Source: an uncultured Actinomycetes bacterium
GTDB lineage: Bacteria; Actinomycetota; Thermoleophilia; Gaiellales; JAICJC01
Direction: 5' to 3'
DNA: 64,000 nucleotides
Assembly (NCBI GenBank): GCA_963723785.1
Contig: CAVRSB010000019.1
Coordinates: 8,459-72,458 of the forward strand
Shown piece by piece: positions 5,022 to 35,143 of this stretch. Within the stretch, counting starts at the first letter, position 1, and each line of letters begins with the position of its first letter. The notes beneath the pieces were generated by a model. The model ran no database searches. It saw nothing but the letters and a program-made list of their open reading frames with translations, and was not told where the DNA came from. The position numbers were made by a program, and so were the translations under genes.

Positions 5022-6341
5022 TCAGGCGGCGGCTGCGGAACGCCGGCGACCGGCCAGCGTCTGGCTGGTGGACGAGTCGATCACGACGTTCACCAACTCA
5101 CCCGGCGCTCCCGCACCGGTGAAGTTGACCGCCTTGTTCCCGCGGGAACGGCCCCGCAACACGGACGGGTCGGTGCGGCTGGGCCCCTCGATCAGTACTT
5201 CCTGGACACTGCCTTCGAGCTCATGGTTGCGCCGGGCGGCGTGCTGCTGAACCAGATCGACCAGCCGCTGGATCCGCTCCTTCTTGACGGTGTCGGGCAC
5301 CTGCTGTTCCATCTTGGCGGCTTCTGTGCCGCGCCGCGGCGAGAACACGAACGTGAACGCGTGGTCGTAGCCCACCTCGTCGTACAGCGACAACGTCTCT
5401 TCGAAGTCGGCGTCGGTCTCGCCGGGGAATCCGACGATGATATCGGTGGTCAGCGCGATCTCGGGGATGGCGGCACGCACATTTGCGACCACGGACAGGT
5501 ACCGCTCGCGGGAGTACGTGCGCCGCATCGCCTTGAGCACGCGGGTGGAGCCCGATTGCACCGGCAGGTGGAGCTGCTCGCAGACCGCGTCGCACTCGGC
5601 CATGGCGGCGATTACGTCGGCGCGCATGTCCTTGGGATGGGGGCTGGTGTACCGGATCCGGCCGATCCCGTCGACTGCGTCCAGATCGCGCAGCAGCTGG
5701 GCGAAACTGGTGTCCACCGCCGGTCGCAGATCCCTGCCGTAGGCGTTCACGTTCTGGCCCAGCAAGGTCAGCTCGATCACCCCGTCATCGGCCAGTGCGC
5801 GGGCCTCGGCGACCAGCTCAGCGGGCGGCCGGGAGCGCTCCCGGCCGCGCACACTGGGGACGATGCAGTAGGCGCAGTTGCAGTTACACCCGGTCGAGAT
5901 CTGAAGCCACGCCTGATGCTGTCGATCGCGCTTGAGCGGCAGCGATCCGGCGAAGTTGTCGAAGGTCGAGAAGTGCCCTCGGGGAATCGCTCCGCCGGCG
6001 GTGATGTACTCCCCCAGCCGATGGATGTTGCCGGGGCCGAAGGCGAAATCGACGAACGGAAACTCCTCGAACAGCGAGTCCTTCATCGATTCCGACCAGC
6101 ATCCGCCCACCACGATCAGCTTGTCGGGGTCGCGCTGCTTCGCGCCGCGGGCGTTCATCAGATGCTGAACCAGTCGCTCGTCGGCCTTTTCACGGATGGT
6201 GCAGGTGTTGAATACCAGCACGTCGGCCTCGTCGCTGTCGACCGCCTCCCCCAGTCCCGATGATTCCAGCAGACCCTTGATCCGCTCGGAGTCGTGCACG
6301 TTCATCTGGCAGCCGAAGGTCGTTACCGAGTACGTGCGCAT
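5022..6341 (-). CDS. miaB: tRNA-2-methylthio-N6-dimethylallyladenosine synthase (radical SAM methylthiotransferase)
   Basis: [21 protein letters not shown], radical SAM motif [15 protein letters not shown]-terminal TRAM domain. Confidence 0.96.
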
Positions 6342-6643: not shown

Positions 6644-6653
6644 GAGGTGGATT

Positions 6654-7808
6654 CTAGATCACGGCACCCGCAGAGACGCCGGCGGCATCCGCATCGATCA
6701 CGATCACCGAGCGAGCGCCCTCGCCCGTGCGCAGGCGGTCGAACGCCTCGTTTATCTGGTCGAGTTCGATCAGATGCGAAACGACATCGCCCATGTCGAG
6801 CCGCCCGTCCGCCGCCAGTCCGATCAGGGCCGGCATCTCGGCCGCCACGTTGGACGACCCGTAGTAACACCCCAGCAGGTTCTTCTCACTGAGCAGATCG
6901 AGCGCCGGCAGCGACACTTCGGTTCCCTTGGGGGCAAGCCCTACCACCACAGCTGACCCGCCCGGCCGGATCATGTCCCATGCCTGGCGGATGGTGGCCG
7001 GAAGCCCCACCACCTCGAAGGCGTAGTCGACACCGCCGGGCACCAGCCCCTTCACCGCATCGACCGCATCCATCACCGATCCGTCGACCGTGTCGGTGGC
7101 TCCCCGTCGCACCGCCCGTTCCAGCTTGTCCGCAGCTCGGTCGACGGCGATGATGCGACCGGCCCCGGCCAGCCTCGCGCCCGCGATCACCTGCAGGCCG
7201 ACTCCGCCGCAGCCGATCACACACACGCTCTCACCGACTCGCACACCGGCCGTGTTGCGCACCGCCCCCACGCCCGTCACCACTCCGCAGCCGAGCAGAG
7301 CCGCCTGCCACAGGGGCAGGGGCGCCGACAGCGGGATGGCGGCGGCGGAGGGCACCACGCACCGGTCGGCGAAGCACGACACGAAGTTGAAATGTTGCAC
7401 CGCGCGGCCGTCGCTGAGGCTCAGCCGAGACGTGCCGTCCAGCAATGTCCCCCGCCAGGCGTGGTCGGCGGCCTCGGTACACAGGTGAAACCGCCCGGCC
7501 CGACAGGCTGAGCAGGTTCGGCAGGGCGGCACGAAGCAGAAGACCACCGGATCGCCCGGCGCCACGTGGGTCACCCCCTCGCCGACCGCCTCCACCACCC
7601 CCGCCCCCTCGTGGCCCAGCACGATCGGCCAGCGACCGCTCCCCAGATGGCCGTCGGCCAGGTGGAGATCCGAGTGGCACACGCCGGCCGCCGCCACCCG
7701 CACAAGCACCTCACCGGCTTTGGGCGGCGCCAGCAACAGCTGCTCACACACGAGGGCGGTACCTGCCTCGTGCAACACGGCCGCGGTGATCGGAATCGAG
7801 TCGCTCAT
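6654..7808 (-). CDS. Zn-dependent alcohol dehydrogenase, class III/formaldehyde-dehydrogenase-like
   Basis: GVCHSD, GHEGAG, structural-Zn CRTCSAC...C, GCGVVTGVGA, GCGGVG; start MSDSIP overlaps the upstream stop. Confidence 0.92.
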   Translation of the reverse strand: MSDSIPITAAVLHEAGTALVCEQLLLAPPKAGEVLVRVAAAGVCHSDLHLADGHLGSGRWPIVLGHEGAGVVEAVGEGVTHVAPGDPVVFCFVPPCRTCSACRAGRFHLCTEAADHAWRGTLLDGTSRLSLSDGRAVQHFNFVSCFADRCVVPSAAAIPLSAPLPLWQAALLGCGVVTGVGAVRNTAGVRVGESVCVIGCGGVGLQVIAGARLAGAGRIIAVDRAADKLERAVRRGATDTVDGSVMDAVDAVKGLVPGGVDYAFEVVGLPATIRQAWDMIRPGGSAVVVGLAPKGTEVSLPALDLLSEKNLLGCYYGSSNVAAEMPALIGLAADGRLDMGDVVSHLIELDQINEAFDRLRTGEGARSVIVIDADAAGVSAGAVI

Positions 7809-8914
7809 GCCACCCGCCACTGCTCCAGCGCATCGAAGTCGGGTTCGATGCCGAGGCCCGGCCCCGGCGGCGGGGCGATGGTGCCGTCTGCGGCGATCTC
7901 GACCGGCGCCGGCAAAAGCCAATCGCGTGCCGCTGCACTCCACTCAGGCGGGTCGAAGGGCACTTCCAGGTAGCCGGCGGTCGAGAATCCCAGTGCGGCG
8001 TGCAGGTTGACGACCAGCCCATAGCCGTTCGACCAGGTATGCGGCGACCACGCTCGCCGGTGCAGATCGGCGAGGGCCGAGACGCGCCGGCACCCGCCGA
8101 TACCGCCCGCCAGCACCACGTCTGTCTGAATCACATCCACACCACCCTGGACGACCAGGTCACGTGCCTCGTGCGCCTGTCGCACCATCTCGCCGGCCGC
8201 GAGCCGCAGGTCGGTGCGGCGGCGAAGCGCGGCGTAGCCGTCGATGTCATCGCTGGCCAGTGGCTCCTCCAGCCAGTACACGTCCAGTGGCTCGAGCGCC
8301 CGGGCACACTGAGCGGCCTCGGCCACATCCCACCGCGGCCGCAGATCTCCAGGCATCCGCCAGCCTTGGTTGGCGTCCACCATGATGTCCATCCCCGGCC
8401 CCACGGCGTCGCGCACGTGAGCGACGGTGTCGATGTCCGCCCGCCAGTCGCCCAGCCCGAACCGCAGCTTGATCGCGCCCACACCGGCGTCGCGCAGGGC
8501 CACGGCCCGCCGCGCCCGCTCGTCCGCGTCCACCATGTGGGCGGCCGATGCGTAGGCAGCGATCCGCTCTCGCCGGCCTCCGAGCAGCTGCCACAACGGC
8601 CGGTCGAGCGCCCGCCCGACGAGATCCCACACCGCCGCCTCGAGTGTCCAGGGCCGGCTTCCGTGGAAGTCCACCGTCTCGCACAGCTCCCGCACCACCT
8701 CGGTGCGGAACGGGTCGACGCCCACCAGCAACTGCTCCAGCAGCTCCCGGTCGGGCAGGGCATCACCGCTGGCAGTGCCCGTCACCCCCTCGTCGGTCAC
8801 GACCGTCACCAGCGTGGCCTCCTGGAAGCGCCGAGGCTCTGGATCCCAGGCGGCGCTCAGGGGAGGATCGATCGGATGTCGGTACCGGCGCGTCTCGACT
8901 GCGGTGATGCGCAC
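7805..8914 (-). CDS. Mandelate racemase/muconate lactonizing enzyme (enolase superfamily) protein
   Basis: AVWDLVG, KLR, metal ligands MVDANQG / WLEEP / AGE, SPH, PPGPGLGI; GTG start at 8914. Confidence 0.9.
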   Translation of the reverse strand: MRITAVETRRYRHPIDPPLSAAWDPEPRRFQEATLVTVVTDEGVTGTASGDALPDRELLEQLLVGVDPFRTEVVRELCETVDFHGSRPWTLEAAVWDLVGRALDRPLWQLLGGRRERIAAYASAAHMVDADERARRAVALRDAGVGAIKLRFGLGDWRADIDTVAHVRDAVGPGMDIMVDANQGWRMPGDLRPRWDVAEAAQCARALEPLDVYWLEEPLASDDIDGYAALRRRTDLRLAAGEMVRQAHEARDLVVQGGVDVIQTDVVLAGGIGGCRRVSALADLHRRAWSPHTWSNGYGLVVNLHAALGFSTAGYLEVPFDPPEWSAAARDWLLPAPVEIAADGTIAPPPGPGLGIEPDFDALEQWRVA

Positions 8915-8918
8915 GCGG

Positions 8919-9446
8919 TCAGCCGGCGTCGTAGAAGGCGTTGGTGGCGCTGTCGCGCAGAGCAATCAGCTCGTCGATGCGCCGGTCGCGGTCGGCTTCC
9001 AGCGCGTCGATCAGCGCGCGCCGGGTGGCATCGCGGTTGGCCGCTCGCACTGCCGCTTTGTCGTCAGCGTTGGGGTCGACCCACACCGCCACCAGGAGCA
9101 CCAGCTCGTCGATCAGATCGCGCTCGATCCGCCCCTCGGCAACCGCGTCCATCACTCCGGCTCCGATCCCCAGCTGGGCAGCGCCCCAGGTGATCAGCTG
9201 GTGGGCCGGCTGAACGGCCGTGGCCTTGTTCAGGACGATCGTGGGCGGGCGCACCGCATATCCCGCTCCCAGGCAGCACAGCACCGGTGCGTGGCCGGGG
9301 CCGGGGACGGCAAAGCCGGCGGTGGCGGCTGCGGCAGTGGCCGAGCCACGGCGCGCGATCACCACGTTGATGTGGCTGCCGTTCGGCACCTCGCCCGACC
9401 AGGCTTCGCCGATGCGGCCGTCGATGTCGTCCAACCGGGTGCTCAT
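8919..9446 (-). CDS. fae: Formaldehyde-activating enzyme (Fae) family protein
   Basis: GEAWSG..NGSHINVVI..RGS, RPPTIVLNKAT, GAAQLGIG..V.DAV.EG.I, VLLVAVWVD...D...V...NRDAT align by eye with Fae (GEALVG..EVAHIDL, KPNTLMFNKVT, GPAQ, NYEAT). Confidence 0.85.
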   Translation of the reverse strand: MSTRLDDIDGRIGEAWSGEVPNGSHINVVIARRGSATAAAATAGFAVPGPGHAPVLCCLGAGYAVRPPTIVLNKATAVQPAHQLITWGAAQLGIGAGVMDAVAEGRIERDLIDELVLLVAVWVDPNADDKAAVRAANRDATRRALIDALEADRDRRIDELIALRDSATNAFYDAG

Positions 9447-9455
9447 AGCTGCAGG

Positions 9456-11511
9456 CTAGCCCTCGCCGCCCACCGCGGTCGGCGACGAGGGTGCAGCCTG
9501 CACCCGGCGCAGCTCCTCGAGTGGGATGTGACAGCGGATGGCGTGACCGGGCTCAGCCTCGGCCAACGGCGGCTCGGTGGTCTCGCAGATGTCACCGATC
9601 TTGCGCGGACAGCGAGTGTGGAACACGCATCCCGTCGGTGGGTCGGCGGGACTGGGCAGCTCCCCTTCCAACCGGATCCGATCCCCTTCGCTGCCGTCCA
9701 GGCTGGGTACAGCCGAAAGCAACGCTTCGGTGTAGGGATGGTGCGGCGCGGAGAACACCGCGTGGGCGTCGCCGAGCTCCATCACCCGTCCCAGATAGAG
9801 CACGCAGATCCGGTCGGACAGGTACCGCACCACGCCGAGGTCGTGGCTGATGAAGAGATAGGCCACGCCCTCCTTGCGCTGCAGCTCGTACAGCAGGTTC
9901 AGGATCGCAGCCTGCACCGACACGTCCAGCGCCGAGGTGGGCTCGTCGCACACCACCAGATTGGGATTCCCCGCGAACGCGCGTGCGATCGCCACCCGCT
10001 GCTTGAGCCCGCCAGACAGCTGCACCGGCCGCATGCCGAGGTATCGATCGGCCAACCGCACCGACCTGGTGAGCTCCACCAACCGGTCATCGCGGGCCTT
10101 GCCCCGCAGCCCGGCCAGCTTGGACAGCGACCGGCCCACCAGCCGGCGGACCGTGTGCCGCCGGTTCAGCGCAGAGTCGGGGTTTTGAAAGACGATCTGG
10201 ACCGCCTTGACCTGGTCGCTGGAACGCTTCTTGGTGGTGCCGGCAAGCGGCGCACCGGACAGCTCGAGGGTCGTACCCGAGTCCGGCTGGAGGATCCCCA
10301 GGAGTACCTTGGCCAGCGTCGTCTTGCCGCTGCCCGACTCACCCACCAGCCCCAGCGTCTCACCTGCGCGGATGCTCATGTCTACGCCGGCGAGGGCGTG
10401 GATGTCGGTGCCCGACACCCGGAACGTCTTGCTCAGATCCTTGGCGCTGAGCAGTGGCTCGAATGTGCGCTGGGCGACCGCGGTCAGGTCGCCACCTTCG
10501 ACATGCGGCAGCCTCGGTGCCTGCTCGTGGAAGTGGCAGCGGGACCCGCGCAGCGCGGTGACCGGGTACATCGGAGGCGGCTCGGTGCGGCAGCGATCCT
10601 CCACCAGCCCACAGCGGTCGGCGAAGATGCAGCCGGGGATGTCGGCTCCGGGTGAGGGCAGGAACCCGGGGATGGTGTCCAGCCAGCCCTCGTCCTTCAA
10701 TCGCCCCCGGCGGGGGATGCAGCGCAGGAGTCCAACCGTGTAGGGATGGCGGGGCTCTTCGAACACCTCGATCGCCGGCCCCTGCTCGACCATCTCGCCG
10801 GCATACAGCACGCCGACCCGGTCGCACATCTTGGCGATCACGCCCAGGTTGTGGCTGATGAAAAGCAACGACGTCGAGAGCTCCTCGCGGAGCGCCGAGA
10901 CGAGGTCCAGCACCTCGGCTTCGACGGTGGCGTCCAGGCCGGTGGTGGGCTCGTCCAGGATCAGCAGGGCCGGCTCGACCGCCAGCGCCATCGCGATCAC
11001 CACCCGCTGCTGCATGCCGCCGGAGAGCTGGTGCGGGTAGCGATCCATGACATTGCCCGGATCGGAGATACGCACCCGCTTGAGCGCGTCCTCAGCCCGC
11101 TCCTTGGCCTCCTTGGAGCCGGTCCCGCTGACCTCGAACACCTCGGCCACCTGCCGACCGATCCGCATTGAGGGGTTGAGTGCACGGGATGGATCCTGGT
11201 ACACCATCGACACGCTGTTCGAGCGCATCTGGCGCAGCTCGGAATCGCTCAGGTCGTAGGGATTGCGCCCGTCGATCAGGATCGAACCGCTGGTGACGCT
11301 GCCGTTTCGCGGCAGGTAGCGCACCAGCGCGAGTGCGACCGTCGATTTACCGCATCCGGATTCGCCCACCAGGCCGAACGATTCGCCTCTGCCGACTTCG
11401 AACGAGACTACCGCGAATTGCTGCCCGATCGCTGCCGCGGACGCGATAGGCGATCTCGAGCTGATCGACCGCCAATGCAGCGTTCTCGACTGGCAGCTCG
11501 GCTGCGCTCAT
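9456..11511 (-). CDS. Peptide/nickel-family ABC transporter ATP-binding protein with two fused ATPase domains (frameshift near 11410)
   Basis: Two Walker A motifs (GESGCGKS, GESGSGKT), two LSGG signatures, two DEPT, two HPYT oligopeptide C-terminal domains; N-terminus MSAAELP is in another frame. Confidence 0.93.
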
Positions 11512-12395
11512 TCGTCCACCACCTTCTCGATCGCGTCGGAGATGAGGTTGACCGAGATCACCAGCGACGCAATGGCGGCGGCCGCGAACAGCACCTCCCA
11601 CCAGTATCCGGCCTGCACGACGGAGATGTTGTTGGAGATGTCAACTCCCCAGTCCGGGGTCGGCGGCGGAATGCCGAATCCCAGAAACGAGAGTGTCGCC
11701 ACCGTGAATACCGCATATCCCAGCCGCACGGTGAACTCCACCAGCACGGGTGAGAGCACGTTGGGCAGCAGCTCGGAGATCATGATGTAGAAGCCGTTCT
11801 CGTTACGCAGCCGAGCGGCCGTGATGTAGTCCAGCTCGCGCTCCTGGATCACCGCCGTGCGCACCGTGCGCGCGATCAGGGGCGCGAAGATGAAGCCGAT
11901 GCAGATGGTGACGGTGATGTTGGACGGCCCCAGCGCAGAGATCACGACCACGGCGGTGATGACCAGCGGGAGCGCCAGCAACGCGTCCACGAACCGGCTG
12001 ATGCCCTCGTCCACCCATCCCCGCATGTAGCCGGTGATCAGTCCGATCAGCGTCCCCAGGATCGTGCCAAGCACGGTCGCGACGAAGGCCACGATCAACA
12101 CCGCGCGGACGCCCGTGATCGTCCGCGAGAAGATGTCGCGGCCGATCTGGTCGGTGCCGAACCAGTGGCTGCTCGACGGGCCGGCGTCGGTGTGCAGCAA
12201 GTCCGTTTCGAACGGTGTGTAGGGGACGATCCGATAGCCGATCACGGCGCACACGATCCAGAACCCCAGGATCGACGCGCCGATCAGGAAGGTCTTGGAC
12301 TTACGCAGTTCGCGCAGCTGCTCACGGCGCACCTGTTTGGCATCCGAGTCGGCGGCACCGGCGACGGCAGGCTCGTCGGCGCTGACCGCGCTCAC
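11508..12395 (-). CDS. ABC transporter permease (DppC/OppC-like)
   Basis: HWFGTDQIGRDIFSR, EAA-like loop DYITAAR, PPPTPDWG. Confidence 0.93.
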   Translation of the reverse strand: MSAVSADEPAVAGAADSDAKQVRREQLRELRKSKTFLIGASILGFWIVCAVIGYRIVPYTPFETDLLHTDAGPSSSHWFGTDQIGRDIFSRTITGVRAVLIVAFVATVLGTILGTLIGLITGYMRGWVDEGISRFVDALLALPLVITAVVVISALGPSNITVTICIGFIFAPLIARTVRTAVIQERELDYITAARLRNENGFYIMISELLPNVLSPVLVEFTVRLGYAVFTVATLSFLGFGIPPPTPDWGVDISNNISVVQAGYWWEVLFAAAAIASLVISVNLISDAIEKVVDE

Positions 12396-13345
12396 TTGTC
12401 ACCCCCGGCTCGCAGCCGCGGGTTCAGCAGCGTGTAGGCGATGTCGGCGCACAGCGTTCCGATCAGGTAGACGACGCCGATAGTGAGTACCGCCGCCTCG
12501 AGCATCGGGAAGTCGTGGTCGTGGGCGGCCTTGTACGTGAGTGAGCCGATGCCCTGATAGTGGAACAGGTATTCGACCACCAGCAGACCGCCGATCAGGT
12601 AGCCGACCTGGGTCGCGACCACAGTGATCGTGGGCAGAAGCGCGTTGCGAAGCACGTGCCTGCGTACCACAGTCTTGGTCGGCAGGCCTTTCAGCACCGC
12701 CGTGCGGGTGTAGTCGGAAGCGAGCGCCTCGATCGTTCCCGCCCGCGCCATCCGCATGATGTAGCCGAACAGCACGCACGCGATCGCGATCGCCGGCAGG
12801 ATCAGGTGGAAGATCTGGGTGAACGGGCCGGCGCCGTCAGGCGCGGTGGCGCTCACCGGCAGCACGTTCAGCCAGATGCCAAAGATCATGATCAGAAACA
12901 CTCCCGAGACGAACTCGGGCAAGCCCAGCAGTGACAGGCCGAACACGCTGATCGACCGATCCGCCCACCCACCCGACTTGAGCGCCGCGATCACCCCCGA
13001 AAGGATCGCCAGGGGGACGCAGATCAAAAACGCCACCAGCGCGAGCTTGAGCGAGTTTACGAGGGCGGTGGTGATCAACGGCCTGATCGGCTCGTGGTAG
13101 GAGTACGACGTGCCCATGTCGCCGTGGAGCAGGTTGGTGACCCAGTCGGTGTACTGCGTCACGATCGGGCGATCGACGCCCAGCTGGTGGTTGAGTTGGG
13201 CGACGCCCTGCGGCGATGCGAGATTTCCCAGGATTACCCGACCGGGATTTCCAGGCAGCTTCTGCCCGGCCAGAAACACGATCATCGACAGAATCCAGAG
13301 CGTGATCAGGGCCAGGCCCAAGCGCTTGAGGATGTAGACCGCCAT
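12392..13345 (-). CDS. ABC transporter permease (DppB/OppB-like)
   Basis: YILKRL, LPGNPG, GDMGTS, DYTRTAVLKGL, HVLRNALLP, D.PML, LNPRLR. Confidence 0.93.
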   Translation of the reverse strand: MAVYILKRLGLALITLWILSMIVFLAGQKLPGNPGRVILGNLASPQGVAQLNHQLGVDRPIVTQYTDWVTNLLHGDMGTSYSYHEPIRPLITTALVNSLKLALVAFLICVPLAILSGVIAALKSGGWADRSISVFGLSLLGLPEFVSGVFLIMIFGIWLNVLPVSATAPDGAGPFTQIFHLILPAIAIACVLFGYIMRMARAGTIEALASDYTRTAVLKGLPTKTVVRRHVLRNALLPTITVVATQVGYLIGGLLVVEYLFHYQGIGSLTYKAAHDHDFPMLEAAVLTIGVVYLIGTLCADIAYTLLNPRLRAGGDK

Positions 13346-13363
13346 CTCGTCCTCCGAGATCGA

Positions 13364-13390
13364 GCCGGTGGCGGGCGGGCCGCCACCGGC
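13364..13390 (-). other. Intergenic stem-loop between the substrate-binding protein and permease genes
   Basis: GCCGGTGGCGG (13364-13374) pairs with CCGCCACCGGC (13380-13390): 11-bp stem, no U tract; typical of an mRNA-stabilising hairpin. Confidence 0.65.
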
Positions 13391-13402
13391 ACGTCATGAT
13401 GC

Positions 13403-15100
13403 TTACGTTGCGGCGGGGCCCGCGCCGTTGAGGAAGATCTGCCCCATGCCGGTGGTGACGACTCCCCCAATGGCTGCCTTGGACACGCTGATCGCGTCGA
13501 ACCAGTAAGGCAGAATCAGCGGGGTCTCCTCCAGCAGCAGGGTTTGGATCTGCCCGGCCAGCGTGCGCTGAGTCGAGAGATCGAGTGCAGCCACGTACTG
13601 GTTGACGAGCTTGTCGTATTGAGAGTTCTTGAAGTGGGCCGCATTCCAGGTGCCGTCCGACTTGAGCGGCGCGTTCAAGAACACGTTGGGGACGCCTCGG
13701 TGTCCGTAGTCGACCAGGCTCATCGCTCCGTCCAGCCAGTCGGACTTCCCATACACGCTGTCGCCGTAGTAGTGGGTCTGATCCTCGATATGGAGGTTGA
13801 TGGTGATGTTGATCGCCGCTGCGGCCTCCTTGATGATCTGGGCCAGGTCGGGGATCTCCTGGTAGATCTCGGCGTACAGGTCGGTCGTGAACCCGTTGGG
13901 ATAGCCGGCGTCAGACAAAAGCTGCTTGGCCTTTTCGAGGTCCTGCACCCGCTGGGGCACGTTCGGGTCGGTCGAGCGGAAGATCGGCGCGAACGGGTTG
14001 TCATTTCCAAGCTGCGCGTAGCCCTTGAACAGTGCCTGTGAGATCTCCGGCCGGTTCAGCGACAGTGCCATCGCTACCCGCACGTTCTTGTCGTTCCACG
14101 GCTTCTGATCGTTGCGCATCGACAGCTCGCGGTGCTGCGAGGACTTGGTCACCCACAGCTTGTAGTCGGGGCTGTTGAGTACCGCCTCGGCACCCTGAGG
14201 CACGATCAGGTTGACGATATCGACGTCGCCGCCGGACAGCGCCAGGATCTGCGGCTGCTGCTTGTCGTAGAAGATGTGTTGCAGCTTGGCCGGCAGCACC
14301 TTGCCGCCCCACCAATTCGGGTTGGGGGCAAACGTCGCTCCCTGGCCGGTCTGGTAGGAGGTCATCTTGAACGGTCCGGTTCCGGGGAAGGTCTTGACCC
14401 ACTTGGTGTAGTCGGACCCGTTGGGCACGATGATCATGTTGTAGTTGTCGGACGAGATCAGGTAGGGGAAGTTCCCGACAGGCCCCTCGAGGTTGAACTC
14501 CACGGTCTGATCGTCGATCTTCTTGACGCCGTCCTTGACGAGCACGTTGGTGAAGGCCGACGCGGCGTTCACATACACGTCCGGGTCGGTGTTCGATTGG
14601 AACGAGTAGACGACGTCATCGGCGGTCATCGGCGTGCCGTCGTTGAAGGTCACGCCCGGGCGGAGGTTGTACGTCCACACCGACGCATCGGCGTTGGGCT
14701 TGAAGCTGGTGGCCAGCATCGGCTTGAGGATGTTGGTTTTGGGATCGTTGAAGCTGAGGAACTCGCCGGTCTGCTGGATCATCGTCAGACCGCCCTCGTC
14801 GGCGATGCTGAGCGGGTTGATGTCGCCGGCCGGGACGACACCCGCGATCCGCAGCGTCGCGCCGGCGGCGGGTTTGACCGCGGCGGCGGAGCTGGAGGGT
14901 GCGGTGGAACCGCTGGAGTTGGCGCCGCCGCAAGCGGTCACGATCGCTCCCAGAAGCGGGATCGAGATGCCGATGATCGACCCTCGCTTGAGGAACTCGC
15001 GGCGGTTGATGTGGCCGGCCACGTACTCGTCGATTACGTGGTTTTCGAGTTCGCTTCGGTTCTGGCGCAACTCGTCGAGCTTTTGGGGGTTCCGCTCCAT
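13403..15100 (-). CDS. ABC transporter substrate-binding protein, family 5, Tat lipoprotein
   Basis: Twin-arginine INRREFLK, lipobox VTAC, LRPGVTFNDGTPMTADDVVYS, GTGPF. Confidence 0.93.
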   Translation of the reverse strand: MERNPQKLDELRQNRSELENHVIDEYVAGHINRREFLKRGSIIGISIPLLGAIVTACGGANSSGSTAPSSSAAAVKPAAGATLRIAGVVPAGDINPLSIADEGGLTMIQQTGEFLSFNDPKTNILKPMLATSFKPNADASVWTYNLRPGVTFNDGTPMTADDVVYSFQSNTDPDVYVNAASAFTNVLVKDGVKKIDDQTVEFNLEGPVGNFPYLISSDNYNMIIVPNGSDYTKWVKTFPGTGPFKMTSYQTGQGATFAPNPNWWGGKVLPAKLQHIFYDKQQPQILALSGGDVDIVNLIVPQGAEAVLNSPDYKLWVTKSSQHRELSMRNDQKPWNDKNVRVAMALSLNRPEISQALFKGYAQLGNDNPFAPIFRSTDPNVPQRVQDLEKAKQLLSDAGYPNGFTTDLYAEIYQEIPDLAQIIKEAAAAINITINLHIEDQTHYYGDSVYGKSDWLDGAMSLVDYGHRGVPNVFLNAPLKSDGTWNAAHFKNSQYDKLVNQYVAALDLSTQRTLAGQIQTLLLEETPLILPYWFDAISVSKAAIGGVVTTGMGQIFLNGAGPAAT

Positions 15101-15243
15101 GGTCACCTGCTTCTTTTGGGGACGACGCGGGTCAATGTACGGTCGCGATCGTCTCGTCGACTACAGCCCACATCCGAAATCTCTTTCATACTGCCGAACT
15201 CGTGTCAAGGGTTGAATCTCGCACGCTGGCAACGCTGGACGTG

Positions 15244-16345
15244 CTAGCCGAGTTCGATCAGCGTGCGAGCGCCGTGGCCGGCCAGCATATCGCCAAACGC
15301 CTCGTTGATCCGTCGCAGCGGGTAGGTCGATCCCTTGAGACGGTCGAGATCGAGTCGCCCATCCATGTACAGGTCGAGCACCATCGGCATGTCCAGGTGG
15401 GGCCGGCACGAGCCGTACAGGCTCCCGGTCACGATCTTTTCGTCGCGAACCAGCTCGGCCCCGGGAAGCTCCACGATTGCTCCCAGCGGCGGGATACCGA
15501 TGCACACCAGCGTGCCACCCCGGCAGACAGCGTGCCAGGCGGTTGCGGCCACTCCCCGCGCCCCTGAGGCTTCGAAACCGTAGTTCGGCGCCCCTGCCTG
15601 CGGTCAGGTCACGCACGGCCTCCACCGGGTCGCAGTCGGTGGGGTCGAGCGCGTGTGTGGCTCCCAGATCGATCGCGAGCCGGCGGCGCTCCTCGGCCGG
15701 ATCGACGGCGATCACGATGGAAGCCCCGACGAGCCCGCAGGCTTGAATCGCAGACAGGCCCACGCCGCCTGCCCCGAACACCACCACCGAACTCCCTGTG
15801 CGCACCATCGCGCGGTTGAGCACCGCGCCGATCCCGGTCATGACCGCGCAGCCCACCAGGGCTGCGATATCGAACGGCGCGTCGGGCCGGATCGGGACGC
15901 AGCTTGCCTCGGGTACCACGGTGGACTCGGCGAACGTCGAGAGAAAGGAGTAGTGGTGGATCGGCTTGCCGTCCAGCGACAGCCGGGTGGTGCCGTCCAG
16001 CAGCGTCCCGGCCAGCAGCGCAGGCGATGCGCTCTCGCACAGGCTCGGCCGGCCGCCCACGCACGGTCCGCAGCGGCCGCAGGCGGGCAGCCACGAGAGC
16101 ACCACGTGATCACCCGGAGCGACCGTGGTGACGCCTTCTCCGACGCTCTCCACCACGCCCGCGCCTTCGTGGCCGAGCACGGCCGGCAGCGGGCTGGGCG
16201 TATCGCCGGTGACCGTATTCCAGTCGCTGTGGCAAACGCCGCTGCGGTGCAGCCGCACACACACCTCGCCGGGTGCGGGCGGGGCGAGGTCGACCTCGAC
16301 CACGTCAAAACCTGAGTTCGGCTCTCGCAATACCGCCGCTAGCAT
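15244..16345 (-). CDS. Second Zn-dependent alcohol dehydrogenase, class III-like (frameshift near 15580)
   Basis: GVCHSD, GHEGAG, CGRCGPC...C, GCAVMTGIGA, GAGGVG; C-terminus TGSLYGS...INEAF in ORF 15244..15552. Confidence 0.9.
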
Positions 16346-16356
16346 CGGGCGGGAGA

Positions 16357-16888
16357 CTAGCGGCCGGCGCCGAGCTCTTCCACATAGGTGGCCGATCGCC
16401 GCGCCAGCGCCCCGTCCTCGGCCACTTCGTAGTAGCCCATCCGCCACAGCGGCGGCGAGTAGAGATGCAGCGACGTGGCTGCCTCGGCCCCGGCATGGCG
16501 GACGTTGTGGATGCGTGACGCATCAAAACGGAAGCCCTGCGCCGGCCCGGTACTCGGTCACGGCCAAATCGGGCTGCCCGATCACCAGTCGCTCTTCGGC
16601 GATCCTGCCCCGCACCACCCGCACCGCTCCCGACGAGAGATCGTGGTCGTGCAGGCCGGTGTCCTGGGACGGCATCCAGCAGATCAGCCACGCCTCCAGG
16701 TGATGATCGCGGCGCAGCCGCACGTAGTGGCGCTCGTCGGCGCGTGTGCTGTCTCCAGGTCGCGCCACAGCTCGGGGCGTGCGGCCAGCGCATCGGCCAG
16801 CGCCTCGAGCTCGTCGTGGCTCGAGATCGCGATCGGCGGTCTCGCGCTCGGCCAGCCAGTGATCGATGCCGGCGCTGGGCTCAGTCAT
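16357..16888 (-). CDS. Cysteine/thiol dioxygenase family cupin (frameshifted)
   Basis: Across frames: EAWLICWMPSQDTGLHDH...RIHNV...TSLHLYSPPL (3-His triad plus S-H-Y motif); stop at 16357. Confidence 0.82.
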
Positions 16889-17852
16889 CGGGCACCTCCG
16901 TTGGGGTTGAGCAGCACGGGCGGGGTTCTGCTCGAGGATCAGATCGGCCGCGCCCGAGCCGAGTGCCTCCACCGCCCTGCGGGTCGGCTCCCATGCGATC
17001 ACCGGGTGATCGCTGCCATACACCACCTGTTCGGCGCCGTAGGTCGAGAGCGTGAGCTCGAGCGCCTCACGGCCCGAGCTGGCGGTGTCGAGAAACAGGT
17101 TGGGATCGATCGAGCCCTGCTCACCGCTGAAGACCCGCCAGCGGTGCTCCAGCAGCGGCGCGCCGCCGGCCAGGATCGCCCACACGGTACGCAGCTGCGG
17201 GTGGAGCCCGCGCCCCACCGCGCGCCAGGTGAAGAATGCGCGCTGCGACCAGGCCGGATACTGGCCCACGCGACGTCCACCACCCCGGGAGCGACGTCGG
17301 GGGCGGGCTGCTGGAGGCGTCCATGGTGCCGGCCCGGGATGGACGAAGCAGCGGCCGGTCGCGGCCCTCGCACCAGGTCGAGCAACGGGCTCCACCGGTC
17401 CGACCGCCTCGGGGGTGGCCAGTGTCTCCGACGGCACGGTCACTCCGGCGAAGCCGCGATCGAGCAGCGTCAGACGACCGGTGCGAGCGACGCCTCGATG
17501 TCGTCGAGCACGACTGCCGCCATCGCCTGCAGGCGGCCTCCCGGACTCGCCGCGCGACCTGCTCGATGCCGGTGTTGTAGGCGTCCACCAGCGGGTGGGC
17601 CTGCTCGGCGGGGAGCGCCTCGCAGCCCACCGGGGTGGAGATCGAGATCACCGCCGAGTCGATCTCCTGGCGATCGAGTTCGGTGATCCGCCGCTGCGGG
17701 GTCGTGGTTTCGCAGGTCGATGTGACAACTCGGGCTCCCATCCCAGTTCCAAGAACATCCGTCGGCCCGCGCCGCGCAGGCAGGGGGGCGCTGTGCGGCG
17801 TTGAGAGCGCCGAGATGAACGCTTCCGGCCACAGGTGCTGATGGATATCCAC
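16885..17852 (-). CDS. Amidohydrolase_2 family protein (multiple frameshifts)
   Basis: DIHQH, SISTPVG, FVHP, AILAGG, FLDTAS, VYGSDHP, ILEQN spread over three frames. Confidence 0.78.
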
Positions 17853-17880
17853 GCGCGGAATGTTGCGCCTCCGAGAGTCT

Positions 17881-17896
17881 TGTGAAACGATTCACA
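17881..17896. promoter_or_regulatory. LacI-type operator TGTGAAACGATTCACA
   Basis: Near-perfect palindrome with a central CG, matching the LacI/GalR pattern TGWAANCGNTTWCA, between the divergent regulator and amidohydrolase genes. Confidence 0.75.
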
Positions 17897-18863
17897 GATT
17901 GTGCCCGATACGTCCTCCAACGCAAGCGACCGACGCTCAAGGATCTCGCCCAGCTGACGGGGCTGTCTCCCGCCGGCGCCCACTACGCGCTGCGCGGCGA
18001 GCGGGTCTCGGCCGACACCGCCGATCGGGTGCGAGCCGAAGCCGATCGGATCGGGTTTCGACTGGATCCCGTGGCCCGGGCGCTGCGTGGCGGCTCCAGC
18101 GGGTTGGTGGGGGTCGTGGGCGGAAGCCTGCACGACTACTGGCACCAGCACTTTGTCTCGGAGCTCGGCCGGGAGCTCGGCGGCGACGGTCGCCAGATGG
18201 TGCTGGTGGACGCCGGCGGCAGCCATCACACCCAGATCGAGATCGCTGCCGATCTGCTCGACCACCGGGTCGACGGTCTGGTGGTGTTGCCGGTCGAGAC
18301 CCACTCGCGGCGACTGGCGCGACGTGGTTGGGCGGGTGCCCACCGTGGCCGTGGGCGCGTCGCTGCCCCACCCTGCGAGCACCGTGCGGTTTGGGGCTGC
18401 CGCGGGTATCCGGCTGATGCTGGAGCATCTCCGCGGGCTCGGCCACGAGCAGGTGCTGGTGTTGACGCCCGGCGTGCACACGCTGCCGGCGGTCGGAGTC
18501 GGTCACCTTCCTGGAGATGCGGCTTTTCGGCGGCCGACGCCGCCCGGGTGGCGACGCCAGGCGCTGTCCCAGAGCGCCACGCCGACCGCCGTTTTCGCCC
18601 TCACTGACACGATTGCGTGCGGGGTGTACGCCGCCTGCCGGGATCTGGGCTTGCGCGTGCCGGGCGACGTGAGTGTCGCCGGGTTTGACGACCATCCGCT
18701 CTCGGCACTGCTCAACCCCGCGCTGACGACCGTCGGCTGGGATACCCCCAGGGCGGCTGCGACGGCCGCGCGGATCCTCAATCGTGCGTTTGAGGGCGGT
18801 CGCCCGGCGTCGGTCGAGTTTCCGCCCACGCTGGTGGTTCGTGACTCCACCGGCCCGGCCTGA
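17882..18863 (+). CDS. LacI family transcriptional regulator (frameshifted; exact start uncertain)
   Basis: RPTLKDLAQLTGLS..., ARALRGG, VDGLVV; C-terminal PTAVFA, GLRVPGDVSVAGFDD, PALTTV, LVVRDST. Confidence 0.9.
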
Positions 18864-18875
18864 TACACCTTCGCG

Positions 18876-19405
18876 ATGCAGCTGGAATTCGTGCGCGGCG
18901 ACATCACCACCGAGCCGGTGGACGCCATCGTGAATGCCGCCAACTCGGCCCTGGCCGGTGGCGGCGGTGTCGACGGGGCGATCCAGCGGGCCGGCGGGCC
19001 CGAGATCCTGGCGGAGTGCCGGACGATCGGTGGTTGTCCCACCGGCGAGGCGGTGGCACACCGGCCGGGCGCGCTCCCCGCGCGGTACGTGATCCACGCG
19101 GTCGGCCCGGTGTGGCGGGGCGGCACAGTCGGGCGAGCCGGAGCTGCTGGCCTCGGCACACCGGCGGATCGATCGAGATCGCCGCGCGAGCTCGGGTGCC
19201 GATCGGTGGCCTTCCCTGCGATCTCCACCGGCATCTACGGCTATCCCGCGTGGCCCGGGCTGCTCCGGTCGCTGTGGCGGCGGCCTGGGCGGCGGCACAG
19301 CGCGCGCCGAGGCTCGAGCGCGTCCGGTTCGTGCTCTTCAGCGAAGCCGATCTCGGCCGCTACCGGGCGCCGCGGACACGCTGGGGGTGCGGCTCAACGC
19401 AGTAG
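18876..19405 (+). CDS. Macro domain protein (YmdB-like O-acetyl-ADP-ribose deacetylase; frameshifted 3' part)
   Basis: [48 protein letters not shown]. Confidence 0.9.
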
Positions 19406-28739: not shown

Positions 28740-31098
28740 TCAGAAGGTTGCTTGGGTGTCCTCGCCCGGTTCCGGGGCGGGGCGTGATTCTCCCAGGATG
28801 CGCGGCAGATCGGCCTCGGTGATCAGCACCTTACGGGCCTTGGAGCCCTCGTACCCCGAGACGATTCCGCGCCGCTCCAGCATGTCGATCAGACGGCCGG
28901 CACGGGTGTACCCCACCCGCAGCCGCCGCTGCATCAGCGACACCGACGCGGTCTGGTGTTGTGCCACCAGCCGGATCGCGTCTTCGAGTACGGGATCCTC
29001 GTCGGCTTCCATGCGCTCGGGCTCGACGTCTGACGGCAGCTCCAGCAACTCCTCCTCGAACTCGGGCTGGGCCTGGCCGCGGCAGGCCTCCACGATCAGG
29101 CGCGTCTCCTCCTCGGAGATGTACGCGCCCTGAACACGGTTGAGCTTGGACGTGCCCAGCGGCTTGTACAGCATGTCGCCCTGCCCCAGCAGCGCCTCGG
29201 CACCGTTGACGTCCAGGATCACGCGTGAATCGGTCTGAGACGACACGGCAAACGCGATCCGGGACGGCACGTTGGCCTTGATCATTCCGGTGATCACGTC
29301 CACCCGCGGGCTCTGGGTCGCCAAAACCAGGTGAATGCCGACGGCGCGAGACTTCTGGGCGAGCCGGATGATGGCGTCCTCGACCTCTGCCGGGGCGACC
29401 ATCATCAGGTCGGCCAGCTCATCGATCACCACCAGGATGTAGGGCAGCGTGTCCTCGCCGCGCTTCAGCCGGCCGCGATTCATCTCGACCAGGTTGCGGG
29501 CTTTGGCTGCGCCCATCAGCTCGTATCGGCTCTCCATCTCGCGCACCACGTTTTGCAGCACCAGCGACGCGTTCTTCATGTTCGTCACGACCGGCGTGAG
29601 CAGGTGCGGGATCGACTCGTAGTGGTTGAGTTCGACCCGCTTGGGGTCGACCAGAATCATGCGCACCTCGTCGGGGGTGGCCCGCAGCAGGATCGAGGAG
29701 AGAATGGCGTTGATGCATCCCGACTTGCCGGCGCCGGTGGTGCCGGCGATCAGCAGGTGCGGCATGCGGGCGAGATCGCAGGCCACCCCAGCGCCGGTGA
29801 TGTCTTTGCCCAGCCATGCTGTGAGCGGGCTCGAACCTTCCGGTGGTGTCGGCGTAGATATCGCCCAAGGTGACCATGTTGGACGACGTGTTGGGCACCT
29901 CCACGCCCACCGCTTGCTTCCCCGGGATCGGCGCCAGGATGCGGATCTCGGTGGTGGCCAGGGCATAGGCCAGATCGTCGCGGAGAGCCGATACCCGGCT
30001 GACCTTGGTGCCCGGCGCCAGCTGCAGCTCGAAGCGAGTTACCCGGGGGCCGTTGACCATGCCGACCAGCCGGGCATCCACACCGAAGCTGGAGAGCGCC
30101 TCCACCAACTGTCGCGCCACCGGGGCGTGATCGACCTTGGCGCCGGTGGTCTTGCTCTTCTGCAGGATCGATTGGGAAGGTAGCCGGTAGGGAGCGCGAT
30201 CGGCGGCCAGCGTGACCCCCAGTGCAGCGGTGATGTCATCCTCGGCGGCGTCGATCGGCAGCGACTGCTGCTCTGGCTCAATCTCAGGCTCGGGAGTAAG
30301 CTCGTCCAGCGACGGCTGAGGGATGGCGGGCTCCTCTGCCGGCTGCTCCTCGATGGGAGCGAAGATGTCGGAGAAGGCCGCCTCGCCGTCCAGTGGCTTG
30401 GCCTTCTTTGGAGTCTTGGCGGTGGGTACCGCGCGCAACGACGGCCGCGACACCGGCCGGTCACGGTACATCCGCACGACCTCTTCGGACAGCCGGGCGC
30501 CGGCACCGGCAGCGCGCGCCACCCCCCGGCCCGAGGAACGCATGGCCAGGCCGATCGAGCCGCCGGTGATCAGGATTACCGCTGCCACCAGGCACAGCAC
30601 CACCAGGATGGTCACTCCCACCGGGCCGATCAGTCCCTGGAGGATCGAGCGGGCATAGGCGCCGGTGAGACCACCGTGGCGCTCAGCCGTGGTGGTGTCG
30701 GTGGTCGAGAAGGCCAGGATCGCGCCGAACAGCAGCAGCGCCACCCCGGTGCGCAACGGGCGCACGTGCAGCAGGCGCGACCGCAGGAATACCGACGCTC
30801 CAGCGATCACCAACAGCACCGGCGCCACCGCAGCCACACGGCCGGCTGTCAGGTGCAGCGCGCCGTCGATCTTTGCCCCGATCACTCCGCCGTCCCAACC
30901 CATGTACTCGACAAAGCCCAGGAAGACTCCAAGCGCGAGTAGTGAAGCGCCGATCAGATCCGGGCGATGCTGGAAAGAGTTTCGGCTCGGCGTCCGTTTC
31001 CGCTGGGGGGTCGTTGAGCGGAGGGGGGTCTTGCGCGGACGCCGAGCCGTCTTTGTACCAGCGGCGCGATGGGGTCTTCGCGTCGTTGTTCTGGCCAT
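28740..31098 (-). CDS. ftsK: DNA translocase FtsK (frameshift near 29840)
   Basis: 4-TM N-terminus, GPRVTRFE, APIPGK..VGVEVPN; MPHLLIAGTTGAGKS, VIDELADLM, gamma domain MQRRLRVGYTRAGRLID. Confidence 0.96.
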
Positions 31099-33811: not shown

Positions 33812-35143
33812 TCACGTTGATCGCCCGGAAAAAGTCCAGGCCGTTCCAGTTGAAGCGCTGCATGCGGCCTTCGACCTCGAGGTCGAAGTTGAAGTACTCC
33901 GGGATCGGCCCGAGCGCATCTCGCCCACGGAACCGGTGCTGCCCGATCTCGTCGAGCCGTTCGATGCCGATGTCGAGCAGCCGGGGAGCGAGTGCGCCGT
34001 CCACCTGCACGATCTTCGCAGCCGGCGACCATGGGTTGTGCGATCGGTAGAGCCCGCAGTAAGGGTCGGCGGCATCATCGCCCGAGGGTGGCGGGGTGGT
34101 CGGCTTGATCGGAGCGGGCTCAGGCAGCGCCCGCCCGTCGTGACGGGCCCGCAGCAGCGCCATGGCGAACTCGCAGATCGGGATGGCGCCCTCCGGCCCG
34201 TTGACCAGCACGAACGCGCCCACGCCCACGTCCGACGTCGGCAATCATCATCGCGTGCTGCCCCACCATCCCTCCGGAGTGCGACAGCTCGCGGGTGCCT
34301 TCGGCAACCTCGACGCCGAGGCCGTAGCCGTACGGCTGCCCCTCCTCGTCCAGCTCGGTGCGCTCCACCATCAGCGCGAACGCCTCGCTCGACACCACCC
34401 CGTCGGCCTCTCCGGCCAGCAGCAGCCGGATGAACCGGGTCATCTCCTCGGCGGTCGCCACCACCGACCCGTCGGCGGATTCACTCACGATGAACGGTGC
34501 CGGAGCAAGCGGATCGCCCGATACCCACAGCCGGTTGGCGTCGAGCTGCAGGTGGCCGTCCGGCAGAGACGGGCGCAGCGCATGGGAGATCACCGCCGAG
34601 GCGGAGGTCATGCCCAGCGGCCGCAGCACGCGCTGCTCGACCGCCTCAGCCACCGTCTGGCCGGTGACCGCCTCGATCACGAGCCCGAGCGTGCAGTAGC
34701 CGTTGTTCGAGTACCACATCCGCTCACCCGGCTTCCAGCACGGCTCCATGCCGGCGAGCAGGGCGATCGGTGCGCGCGAGGGCGGGCCGGGCTCGGTGCC
34801 GATGGGAAGACCGGCGGTGTGGGTCAGCAGGTGGTGCAGAGTGATCGCACCGGGCCGGCCGAACCGAAACCACGGCAGATAGCGCTCAACCGGGGCGTCC
34901 AGCTCGAGCAGCCCCTCCTCCACCAGCCCCACCAGGCAGACCGCGGTGATCGATTTGTGGATCGACCCGATCTGGCCGCGGATGTCGGGTGTCCACGGCT
35001 GCCCGACGCGGGCCTCGCCGTAGGCTCGCACCAAAATCGGCCCGGTACGGTCGGTCAGCGCCAGTGACACGCCGGGGGTGTCGCCGGCGGCGATTCGCTG
35101 CCAGTGCGTAGGCCTCGAGAGCGTGCTCGAGCGGGTCGCTCAC
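33812..35143 (-). CDS. Serine hydrolase, beta-lactamase/AmpC family (frameshifted)
   Basis: SxxK (GSIHK), LLTHTAGL, YxN (WYSN), PLGM, HSGG. Confidence 0.85.

Follow-up and report, generated by a model that had tools for sequence, protein, structure and literature searches.

Ergothioneine, the betaine of 2-thio-histidine, is a widespread antioxidant that comes from fungi and actinobacteria, and its turnover in the environment is poorly mapped. In one degradation route, which Nalivaiko, Vasseur and Seebeck reportedly set out in Angew. Chem. in 2024, an ergothioneine dioxygenase (ETDO) and a metal-dependent ergothioneine-sulfinate desulfinase convert it to trimethylhistidine (hercynine) and SO2. 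The other route is said to comprise ergothionase (PDB 6S7J/6S7Q), thiourocanate hydratase, a desulfhydrase and a hydantoinase-type hydrolase. Here we describe a gene cluster at positions 6654–18863 of a 64-kb stretch of DNA from an uncultured member of the Gaiellales (contig CAVRSB010000019.1; the whole stretch is called the window below), which contains a relative of the first of these two enzymes and a probable counterpart of the second. We propose, at a probability of about 60%, that this locus serves to scavenge and degrade ergothioneine or a very close 2-thioimidazole betaine, and that two modules have been joined in it. Module 1 comprises an ETDO-like dioxygenase, an Amidohydrolase_2 enzyme and a LacI-type gene together with its operator, and would carry out the known oxidative route. 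Module 2 consists of a family-5 ABC importer, which would take up the betaine, and a tetrad of two zinc-dependent alcohol dehydrogenases (ADH1 and ADH2), a Fae-like protein and an enolase-type enzyme. The half of this scheme that leads from ergothioneine to hercynine and SO2 is already known; the new part would be the order-wide coupling of the tetrad and the family-5 importer to ergothioneine catabolism.

Domain matches confirmed the arrangement described in the original prediction, namely a co-oriented minus-strand run divergent from a LacI-type gene. In minus-strand order, the run reads Amidohydrolase_2, a cysteine dioxygenase (CDO)-type cupin, ADH2, SBP_bac_5, two permeases, a fused double ABC ATPase, Fae, an MR_MLE enzyme and ADH1. 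The window belongs to a genome (G000) that is 54% complete in 29 contigs, and several of its genes are frame-broken, as discussed below. A congener (sister genome G002) was used as the reference, and its intact gene copies served all functional comparisons. Gene occurrence was scored in 41 genomes of relatives, 20 of them high-quality, and in a wider sample of 401 Actinomycetota. Neighbourhoods were counted in the best 80 of 341 related loci (L-numbers; G-numbers denote genomes), of which 53 were full-length, and the denominators vary with the DNA available (77, 75 or 69). Neighbours of Fae were counted up to a distance of 10 kb.

The dioxygenase gene (16361..16888, minus strand, four frame-breaking insertions) encodes a 3-His cupin. 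In phmmer searches the intact G002 copy, which is 87% identical in amino acids to the projected window copy, matched PDB entries 8QFL–8QFR at E 7e-36, compared with 1.6e-5 for cysteine dioxygenases. The titles of these entries read 'Ergothioneine dioxygenase from Thermocatellispora tengchongensis'. An AlphaFold2 (AF2) model of the cupin (pLDDT 90.3) superposed on 8QFL–8QFR with Z 22–24, a root-mean-square deviation of 1.2–1.4 and 44–46% identity, against Z 16–18 and 17–20% identity for cysteine dioxygenases, and Z 15–18 and 16–20% identity when cysteine, 3-mercaptopropionate and mercaptosuccinate dioxygenases were taken together. Residues H79, H81, H126, H140 and Y142 were invariant in 17 sequences and make up the 3-His metal site plus a His/Tyr pair. 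This pair corresponds to H147 and Y149 in the titles of PDB variants, and the S-I-H-L-Y segment of the cupin aligns on S-I-H-A-Y of 8QFL. The dioxygenase of a distant actinomycete family (L116) matched the solved ETDO at E 6.5e-72. Judged by sequence and model, the cupin is an ETDO homologue and probably not a cysteine-type thiol dioxygenase, and it would oxidise ergothioneine to its sulfinic acid as an Fe(II) enzyme. A bioRxiv preprint (10.64898/2026.05.19.726356) attests the existence of ETDO in print. A second, more divergent ETDO-like paralogue lies away from the cluster in most Gaiellales genomes searched, for example at G002:C19:136674-137162.

The amidohydrolase gene (about 16881..17852, minus strand, 18 frame-breaking indels) adjoins an ETDO-like gene in 29 of the 30 loci that hold both. 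The pair was also adjacent in 9 of 10 extra Actinomycetota loci, each in unrelated surroundings and none with the Fae module. The intact G002 copy matched PF04909 (E 5.3e-11), and among solved structures it comes closest to ACMSD, LigW and IDCase, which are non-oxidative decarboxylases, with weak scores (E ~1e-5). Its metal ligands (H-x-H, H168 and D277) are conserved, and the public names of the family are only 'amidohydrolase' or '6-methylsalicylate decarboxylase'. From its sequence and setting, the protein is probably the ergothioneine-sulfinate desulfinase, a metal-dependent amidohydrolase-fold enzyme that would turn the sulfinate into hercynine and SO2. Loss of SO2 from an imidazole-2-sulfinate would be chemically analogous to the reaction of the decarboxylase family. 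The locus resembles the ETDO and desulfinase of actinobacteria in having a two-gene unit, a 3-His cupin with a His/Tyr pair beside a metal-dependent Amidohydrolase_2 protein, and differs in that the pair forms part of a longer co-oriented array, which also encodes an ABC importer and four more enzymes. The original prediction knew of no characterised pathway with this gene combination; the dioxygenase and its partner do match the two-enzyme ergothioneine degradation system. Its broader suggestion, that a small sulfur-containing molecule is taken up and broken down, is consistent with this reading. A sugar-lactonase or acid-sugar reading of the amidohydrolase was dropped once the link to ETDO appeared.

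Homologues of the cluster genes co-occur in other genomes; a failure to do so would have counted against the original prediction. At least one of four ergothioneine-type genes (the dioxygenase, the amidohydrolase, an ergothionase-like lyase or a urocanase paralogue) was present near Fae in 40 of the 53 full loci. The Fae module is conserved in Gaiellales and in one distant actinomycete family, and the gene orders vary. Four loci (L066, L085, L097 and L115) have an 11-gene same-strand array of lyase, amidohydrolase, dioxygenase, solute-binding protein (SBP), two permeases, ATPase, ADH2, Fae, enolase and ADH1. In L043–L045, L047, L048, L059, L068 and L082 the lyase gene comes next after the enolase gene, in the same orientation, and the first five of these have the order ADH2-Fae-enolase-lyase, alone or in longer arrays. 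In another arrangement the dioxygenase–amidohydrolase pair is divergent from LacI, behind which the Fae module lies. Fae adjoins an amidohydrolase, a urocanase paralogue and a Rieske oxygenase in L025. In one family outside the class (L116 and L117), the SBP, permeases, ATPase, ADH2, Fae, enolase and ADH1 genes are followed by LacI, amidohydrolase and dioxygenase, and in L116 a lyase gene stands beside this full set.

The lyases, which belong to the histidine ammonia-lyase (HAL) family and lie near Fae in 27 of 80 loci, point to the second route. A representative lyase matched ergothionase 6S7J at E 2.4e-53, compared with 5.9e-45 for histidine ammonia-lyases. None of 23 lyases contained a G-x-x-G-A-S-G-D-L type pattern, which we take to be the motif for the 4-methylideneimidazol-5-one (MIO) group, and an ASG triplet was missing altogether from 19 of the 23. 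Aligned with ergothionase, the representative has G-Q-A-D where ergothionase has G-E-G-D. The likeness to the ergothionase route thus lies in the MIO-less lyases of the relatives, which are closest to 6S7J, and in the urocanase paralogues and amidohydrolases within their Fae-module arrays. The difference is that the window's own cluster has no lyase. The same genome carries one elsewhere (G000:C3:37200-38612), a candidate, on its sequence, for action on ergothioneine or hercynine. In the same genus, a separate lyase-route locus (L137, G002:C9:42000-60000) holds an IclR gene, a divergent HalD-like/urocanase-paralogue gene, two amidohydrolases and a lyase. Other neighbours that recur near Fae (L044, L046 and others) have links to methylated amines, namely an MttB-family methyltransferase (6 loci), an FAD_binding_4 oxidase (13), DDAH/ADI-like proteins (5), homocysteine S-methyltransferase (5), MetE-like proteins (10) and M20 peptidases (12).

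The regulatory site of module 1 is a LacI-type operator, TGTGAAACGATTCACA, at 17881..17896 between the starts of the amidohydrolase and LacI genes. This near-palindrome, spotted by eye, is 14/16 self-complementary around a central CG and has two central mismatches, owing to which an inverted-repeat search at the LacI junction returned none. With up to 3 mismatches allowed, the window holds no other copy of it (0.13 matches expected), which bears out the operator of the original prediction. The pattern TGNAANCGNTTNCA matched none of the loci or genomes, and the window's own operator does not fit it either. The LacI-family repressor gene (17901..18863, plus strand, five frame-breaking indels) encodes a protein with a Peripla_BP_3 match; several LacI-family NCBIfam models scored below cut-off, and no helix-turn-helix domain is among the Pfam matches listed. 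A LacI homologue is also divergent from the amidohydrolase–dioxygenase pair in L116, L126 and L134, where L126 has LacI and the pair alone and L134 has fragmentary ABC and ADH2 matches. Since LacI accompanies the pair where no Fae module is seen, we regard it as the regulator of module 1. The prediction had placed the entire run under LacI control, which goes further than the single operator, at the LacI/amidohydrolase junction, supports. The gap that it had put at ~140 bp is real, with 137 bp (15107–15243) between the SBP and ADH2 genes, and for LacI to govern the importer and the tetrad, transcription would have to continue through it. A search of this gap revealed no sigma-70-like promoter, no terminator-like site and no second operator. 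The alternative offered in the prediction, two adjacent modules, fits these results, and the LacI/amidohydrolase/dioxygenase unit occurs alone elsewhere in Actinomycetota.

Module 2 contains the tetrad, in which the Fae-like gene (8919..9446, minus strand, intact; PF08714 E 7e-33) represents an orphan branch of the formaldehyde-activating-enzyme family. It was present in 37 of the 41 relatives, including all 20 high-quality genomes, and in 12 of the 401 Actinomycetota. The protein scored 97 bits against TIGR03126, below the cut-off of 118, and matched PDB 1Y5Y at E 1.1e-16 with H-I-N in place of H-I-D. The Asn (N27) was invariant in 13 sequences, and ESM Atlas matches were to 'Fae domain protein' clusters only. 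Mch (PF02289), a marker of tetrahydromethanopterin (H4MPT), was found in 0 of 41 relatives and 0 of the 20 high-quality ones, with positive controls and with G000 itself only 54% complete. Likewise, MshC (TIGR03447) exceeded its cut-off in 0 of 41 relatives, and sub-threshold matches of ~260 bits also occurred in all 14 control genomes. Therefore, with neither Mch nor above-cut-off MshC in the lineage, the canonical Fae and mycothiol readings fail. In comparison with Fae of Methylorubrum extorquens (PDB 1Y5Y/1Y60; TIGR03126), the Pfam family and the His of H-I-D are kept, and the sub-cut-off score, the invariant Asn for Asp, the lack of Mch and of above-cut-off MshC in the 41 relatives, and the enolase-type gene at its side are different. 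More distant Fae-like proteins in other actinobacteria are encoded beside aldehyde dehydrogenase (ALDH), iron-dependent ADH, amine-catabolic genes and HalD-type or 2-oxoglutarate (2OG) oxygenases, which is consistent with a general aldehyde-handling role. In two of these bacteria (L123:10026-11356 and L124:8991-11393) the Fae-like gene (29–37% identity) overlaps a HalD-type (PF23169) gene. A 2OG-Fe(II) oxygenase adjoins this pair in L124, and this may be another pairing of an oxygenase with a Fae-like protein.

The two dehydrogenases, ADH1 (6654..7808, minus strand, intact; Pfam ADH_N and ADH_zinc_N) and ADH2 (15244..16345, minus strand, frame broken at 15585), are ~45% identical. ADH1 is a class-I/III-like member of the medium-chain dehydrogenase/reductase family, and its start overlaps the stop of the enolase gene (7808 vs 7805). 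ADH1 scored 311 bits with TIGR03989 (cut-off 440), 295 with TIGR02818 (544) and 276.5 with TIGR03451 (513), and ADH2 scored 290 with TIGR02818 (cut-off 544) and 271 with TIGR03451 (cut-off 513). Both are thus nearest to class III-type models, yet fall well short of the cut-offs set for the class III, mycothiol-dependent and NDMA-type families. These scores, with MshC over cut-off in none of the relatives, do not support the thiol-dependent aldehyde dehydrogenase that had been predicted alongside a canonical Fae. The glutathione-dependent formaldehyde system Gfa/FlhA offers a likeness of another kind, since it pairs an adduct-forming enzyme with an adduct dehydrogenase, as the Fae-like protein is paired here with class-III-like Zn-ADHs.

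The enolase-superfamily gene (7805..8917, minus strand, intact; MR_MLE_C E 2.4e-57) encodes a mandelate racemase-type barrel protein. It has the two-domain fold, the three carboxylate ligands and the Asp/His pair at the barrel end that mark the mandelate-racemase type. Its AF2 model (pLDDT 90.6) matched acid-sugar dehydratases and cycloisomerases in a flat list (Z 38–42.5, 24–31% identity). The invariant residues are K150, R152, D181, E217/E218, E243, D266 and H293, with K-x-R replacing K-x-K, and their presumed catalytic roles follow the motifs of the family. Systems of the HpbD type combine an importer for an amino-acid betaine with an enolase-superfamily enzyme that works on the alpha-carbon, and they release C1 units by stripping off N-methyl groups. 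The likeness is one of outline, an importer plus an enolase-superfamily enzyme; in contrast, the enzyme here has K-x-R and an Asp/His pair and is nearest to acid-sugar dehydratases, and the window cluster has no Rieske or flavin demethylase. Neither the best 60 of 127 PDB sequence matches nor the 50 structural matches listed include HpbD or another betaine epimerase. HpbD is an enolase-superfamily epimerase in hydroxyproline-betaine and proline-betaine catabolism (PMC3950512).

The tetrad genes keep close company in the relatives. Fae is immediately followed by the enolase gene in 69 of 77 loci and immediately preceded by an ADH gene in 51 of 75, and in 47 of 69 another ADH gene comes after the enolase gene. 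The tetrad would process a product common to both ergothioneine routes, and our best guess at its target is the trimethylammonium/C1 part or the alpha-carbon of the betaine. In such a scheme, the enolase-type enzyme would remove the proton adjacent to the carboxylate and the Fae-like protein would trap an aldehyde on an acceptor other than H4MPT; the adducts would be oxidised by ADH1 and ADH2. Only tentatively, and with more doubt than confidence, do we suggest that the tetrad is an undescribed route for dismantling hercynine or its trimethylammonium/C1 part, with a Fae-family protein working without H4MPT and an enolase-superfamily enzyme acting on a histidine betaine, and that the family-5 ABC system is a new type of ergothioneine/hercynine importer. 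No paper was found that ties the Fae-like/enolase-type/ADH set to ergothioneine, in a search that left most subscription journals outside. Ideas involving thiazolidine-carboxylate, djenkolate or mycothiol scavenging were dropped, as nothing was found in their support. An ADH2-Fae fusion suggested by open frames of 550–680 aa was also rejected, since ADH2 in L024 has its own stop and Fae lies in another frame. In L076, L084 and L085 (about 10510–12760), enolase and ADH1 form single open reading frames (ORFs) of 745–748 aa, which are either natural fusions or single-base errors at the 4-base overlap.

The importer genes of module 2 start with an intact family-5 SBP (13403..15106, minus strand; SBP_bac_5 E 1.3e-72) that has an N-terminal twin-arginine-like stretch. 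Two intact, overlapping ABC permeases (11508–12395 and 12392–13345, minus strand; BPD_transp_1, OppC_N and BPD_transp_1_N) and a fused double ABC ATPase of the Dpp/Opp type (9456..11511, minus strand; ABC_tran x2, oligo_HPY x2; frame broken at 11409) complete it. The nearest NCBIfam models of the SBP are NikA/Opp5A and CntA, all far below cut-off. An ABC ATPase is encoded near Fae in 43 of the 53 full loci. In L022, an array of IclR, HalD-like, urocanase paralogue, amidohydrolase and lyase genes continues into a 76% identical SBP with its ABC genes, and this lyase–SBP array is divergent from Fae-enolase-ADH1. In the window's genus ADH2 comes after the dioxygenase. The SBP is a candidate receptor for ergothioneine or hercynine. 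EgtD exceeded its cut-off in 8 of the 41 relatives and in no member of the window's genus, which is represented by 7 genomes, three of them 86–95% complete. Because the genus shows no EgtD, we infer that the importer brings in the betaine, and scavenging of external ergothioneine appears likelier than management of self-made ergothioneine.

The original prediction did not notice the broken reading frames of half of the genes. Six genes (ATPase, ADH2, cupin, amidohydrolase, LacI and the macro-domain gene that follows) are not open frames in the window. In the ATPase, one base inserted at 11409, shortly before Walker A and missing from G002, puts the N-terminal 35 residues in another frame when translation and sequence are compared. 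ADH2 has a 1-base insertion at 15585, and its ADH_zinc_N match stops at profile position 62 of 129. A plot of GC at third codon positions was clean over 6650–15100 and frame-jumping over 15150–18860. Relative to G002, the window has 98 indel events, mostly single-base insertions outside homopolymers, at a density of ~0–5 per 2 kb with hot spots at 16–18 kb (20 insertions and 4 deletions) and 18–20 kb (11 and 4). Of these, 89 are frame-breaking, 67 fall within genes called on G002, and 23 of 72 genes are hit; by window position, ftsK-type and IPP-transferase (miaA-type) genes are struck too. The window-specific insertions are missing from all 5 congeners aligned, and the genes are intact in G002 (macro-domain gene 186 aa, LacI 319, amidohydrolase about 318, cupin 174, ADH2 366).

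Public reads located the fault in the window sequence itself. Read contigs from four public runs of two studies had 0 mismatches over 14990–16456 and each had one gap across 15585. In the parts of the hot spot that they cover, read contigs omit one base at 16534, 16742, 16750, 17270, 17296, 17309, 17799, 18308, 18494, 18517 and 18556 and add a C behind 17919, and all of these are sites of window-specific indels. The same contigs differ from the window by 2–5% substitutions, so the stretch of the window there is a low-quality consensus. The best-matching public runs may be the source sample, which is immaterial to this test of consensus accuracy. When projected on G002 codons, the window copies had zero in-frame stops and dN/dS of 0.076–0.203 (ADH2 0.076, LacI 0.122), compared with 0.138 for the intact histidine kinase and 0.115 for the intact binding protein. 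The frame breaks are assembly errors and not gene decay. Genuine pseudogenes in a lineage that is losing the pathway would account for the ~40 indels that crowd 16.4–19.4 kb; we give this explanation scarcely any credence, given that nearly all indels are 1-base insertions outside homopolymers, spread through the window and into ftsK-type and miaA-type genes, that projection leaves no stops and a dN/dS of 0.08–0.20, and that the inserted bases are missing from the read contigs. With half of the genes frame-broken by consensus errors, automatic annotation would report pseudogenes or fragments. The same insertion errors distort housekeeping ORFs across the window (e.g. 427–2892, 28740–29966, 35140–37710 and 58429–59100), creating joint ORFs of an aminotransferase with an HflX-type GTPase and of DHDPS with RNase J, and truncating an FtsK-type gene and an AAA_3 ATPase.

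Several observations weigh against a role in ergothioneine scavenging and degradation. The Gaiellales dioxygenase is just 44–46% identical to the characterised ETDO, and the desulfinase assignment draws on adjacency, fold family and the pathway reported by Nalivaiko, Vasseur and Seebeck. We know of no LacI regulators that sense ergothioneine and no family-5 binding proteins that bind it. The dioxygenase, amidohydrolase or lyase is directly upstream of just 7 of 40 SBP genes, with ADH2 upstream of 4 more. The main weakness of the model is that the window cluster has no obvious source of formaldehyde, that is, no demethylating oxygenase or oxidase. In addition, the relatives are non-independent samples, and the counts inflate the number of separate events. 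Other observations of this sort suit a different explanation, in which the modules are independent, with ETDO, desulfinase and LacI managing cellular ergothioneine and the importer and tetrad oxidising an unrelated acid-sugar or peptide-like nutrient through an aldehyde. Most of the other Actinomycetota that were examined have the ETDO pair by itself amid unrelated genes (9 of 10 further loci), and ETDO-like genes occur in 33 of the 401 Actinomycetota (one of them, G160, flagged as unpublished and used for no other point), as against the 12 with Fae-like genes. No ergothioneine-type gene lies within 10 kb of Fae in 13 of the 53 full loci. The nearest relatives of the enolase-type enzyme are acid-sugar dehydratases and cycloisomerases and not betaine racemases, distant Fae-likes adjoin ALDH, iron-dependent ADH and amine-catabolic genes, and the 137-bp gap and single operator separate the two units. 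We nevertheless consider independence unlikely, in view of the co-location in 40 of 53 full loci, in several gene orders and in a distant family too, the lyase gene that comes straight after the enolase gene, in the same orientation, in eight loci, and the orthologous ABC system inside the lyase-route array of L022.

Ergothioneine could also serve as a cofactor and not as a nutrient, with the Fae-like protein condensing formaldehyde or another aldehyde with it, the class-III-like ADHs oxidising the adduct much as Gfa/FlhA work with glutathione, the importer supplying the thiol, and ETDO and desulfinase clearing surplus or damaged cofactor. This would suit the absence of above-cut-off MshC and of an H4MPT marker from the relatives, the class III-type affinity of the ADHs, and a genus in which an importer is present although EgtD was not found. 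It leaves no role for the enolase-type enzyme, however, and the association with ergothionase-like lyases indicates catabolism. Ergothioneine is, moreover, mainly a thione and a poor nucleophile. Altogether, a cofactor role seems improbable. A further reading is a set of a cysteine-type thiol dioxygenase, a true H4MPT-linked Fae and a thiol (mycothiol)-dependent formaldehyde dehydrogenase handling a C1 unit from a sulfur compound. The Pfam names CDO_I and Fae and the class-III leanings of the ADHs speak for it; against it, the dioxygenase resembles ETDO much more than CDO, Fae does not reach the TIGR03126 cut-off, Mch and above-cut-off MshC are each at 0 of 41, and the ADHs are below all curated cut-offs, which makes it very improbable indeed. 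We retain ergothioneine, or a very close 2-thioimidazole betaine, as the proposed substrate of the locus.

The flanks of the cluster are housekeeping genes, as the original prediction had stated. On one side lies miaB (5022–6341), and on the other, from 18841 onwards, a macro-domain gene and a two-component system. The macro-domain gene (18841–19405, plus strand, 11 frame-breaking indels) overlaps the end of LacI, and its intact G002 copy scored above the cut-off of NF001664, O-acetyl-ADP-ribose deacetylase. The view of the cluster as an island inserted among these genes did not hold, in that the 64-kb window and G002 are collinear from end to end (92% identity), and the cluster is placed between miaB and the two-component genes in 6 of 6 congeners compared. 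At window position 61456, G002 has 44 extra bases that are absent here and that include a perfect hairpin (AAAAGGTGCC...GGCACCTTTT) with A/T-rich flanks and a terminator-like look.

Together, these results give a functional context to an orphan Fae-family branch in non-methylotrophs. The tetrad provides candidate genes for the fate of hercynine after oxidative desulfurisation, and module 1 and the ABC system contribute a candidate LacI-type sensor and a candidate ergothioneine importer. They also hint that the Gaiellales, an abundant uncultured order of soil bacteria, may scavenge ergothioneine, possibly as a source of sulfur, nitrogen or carbon.

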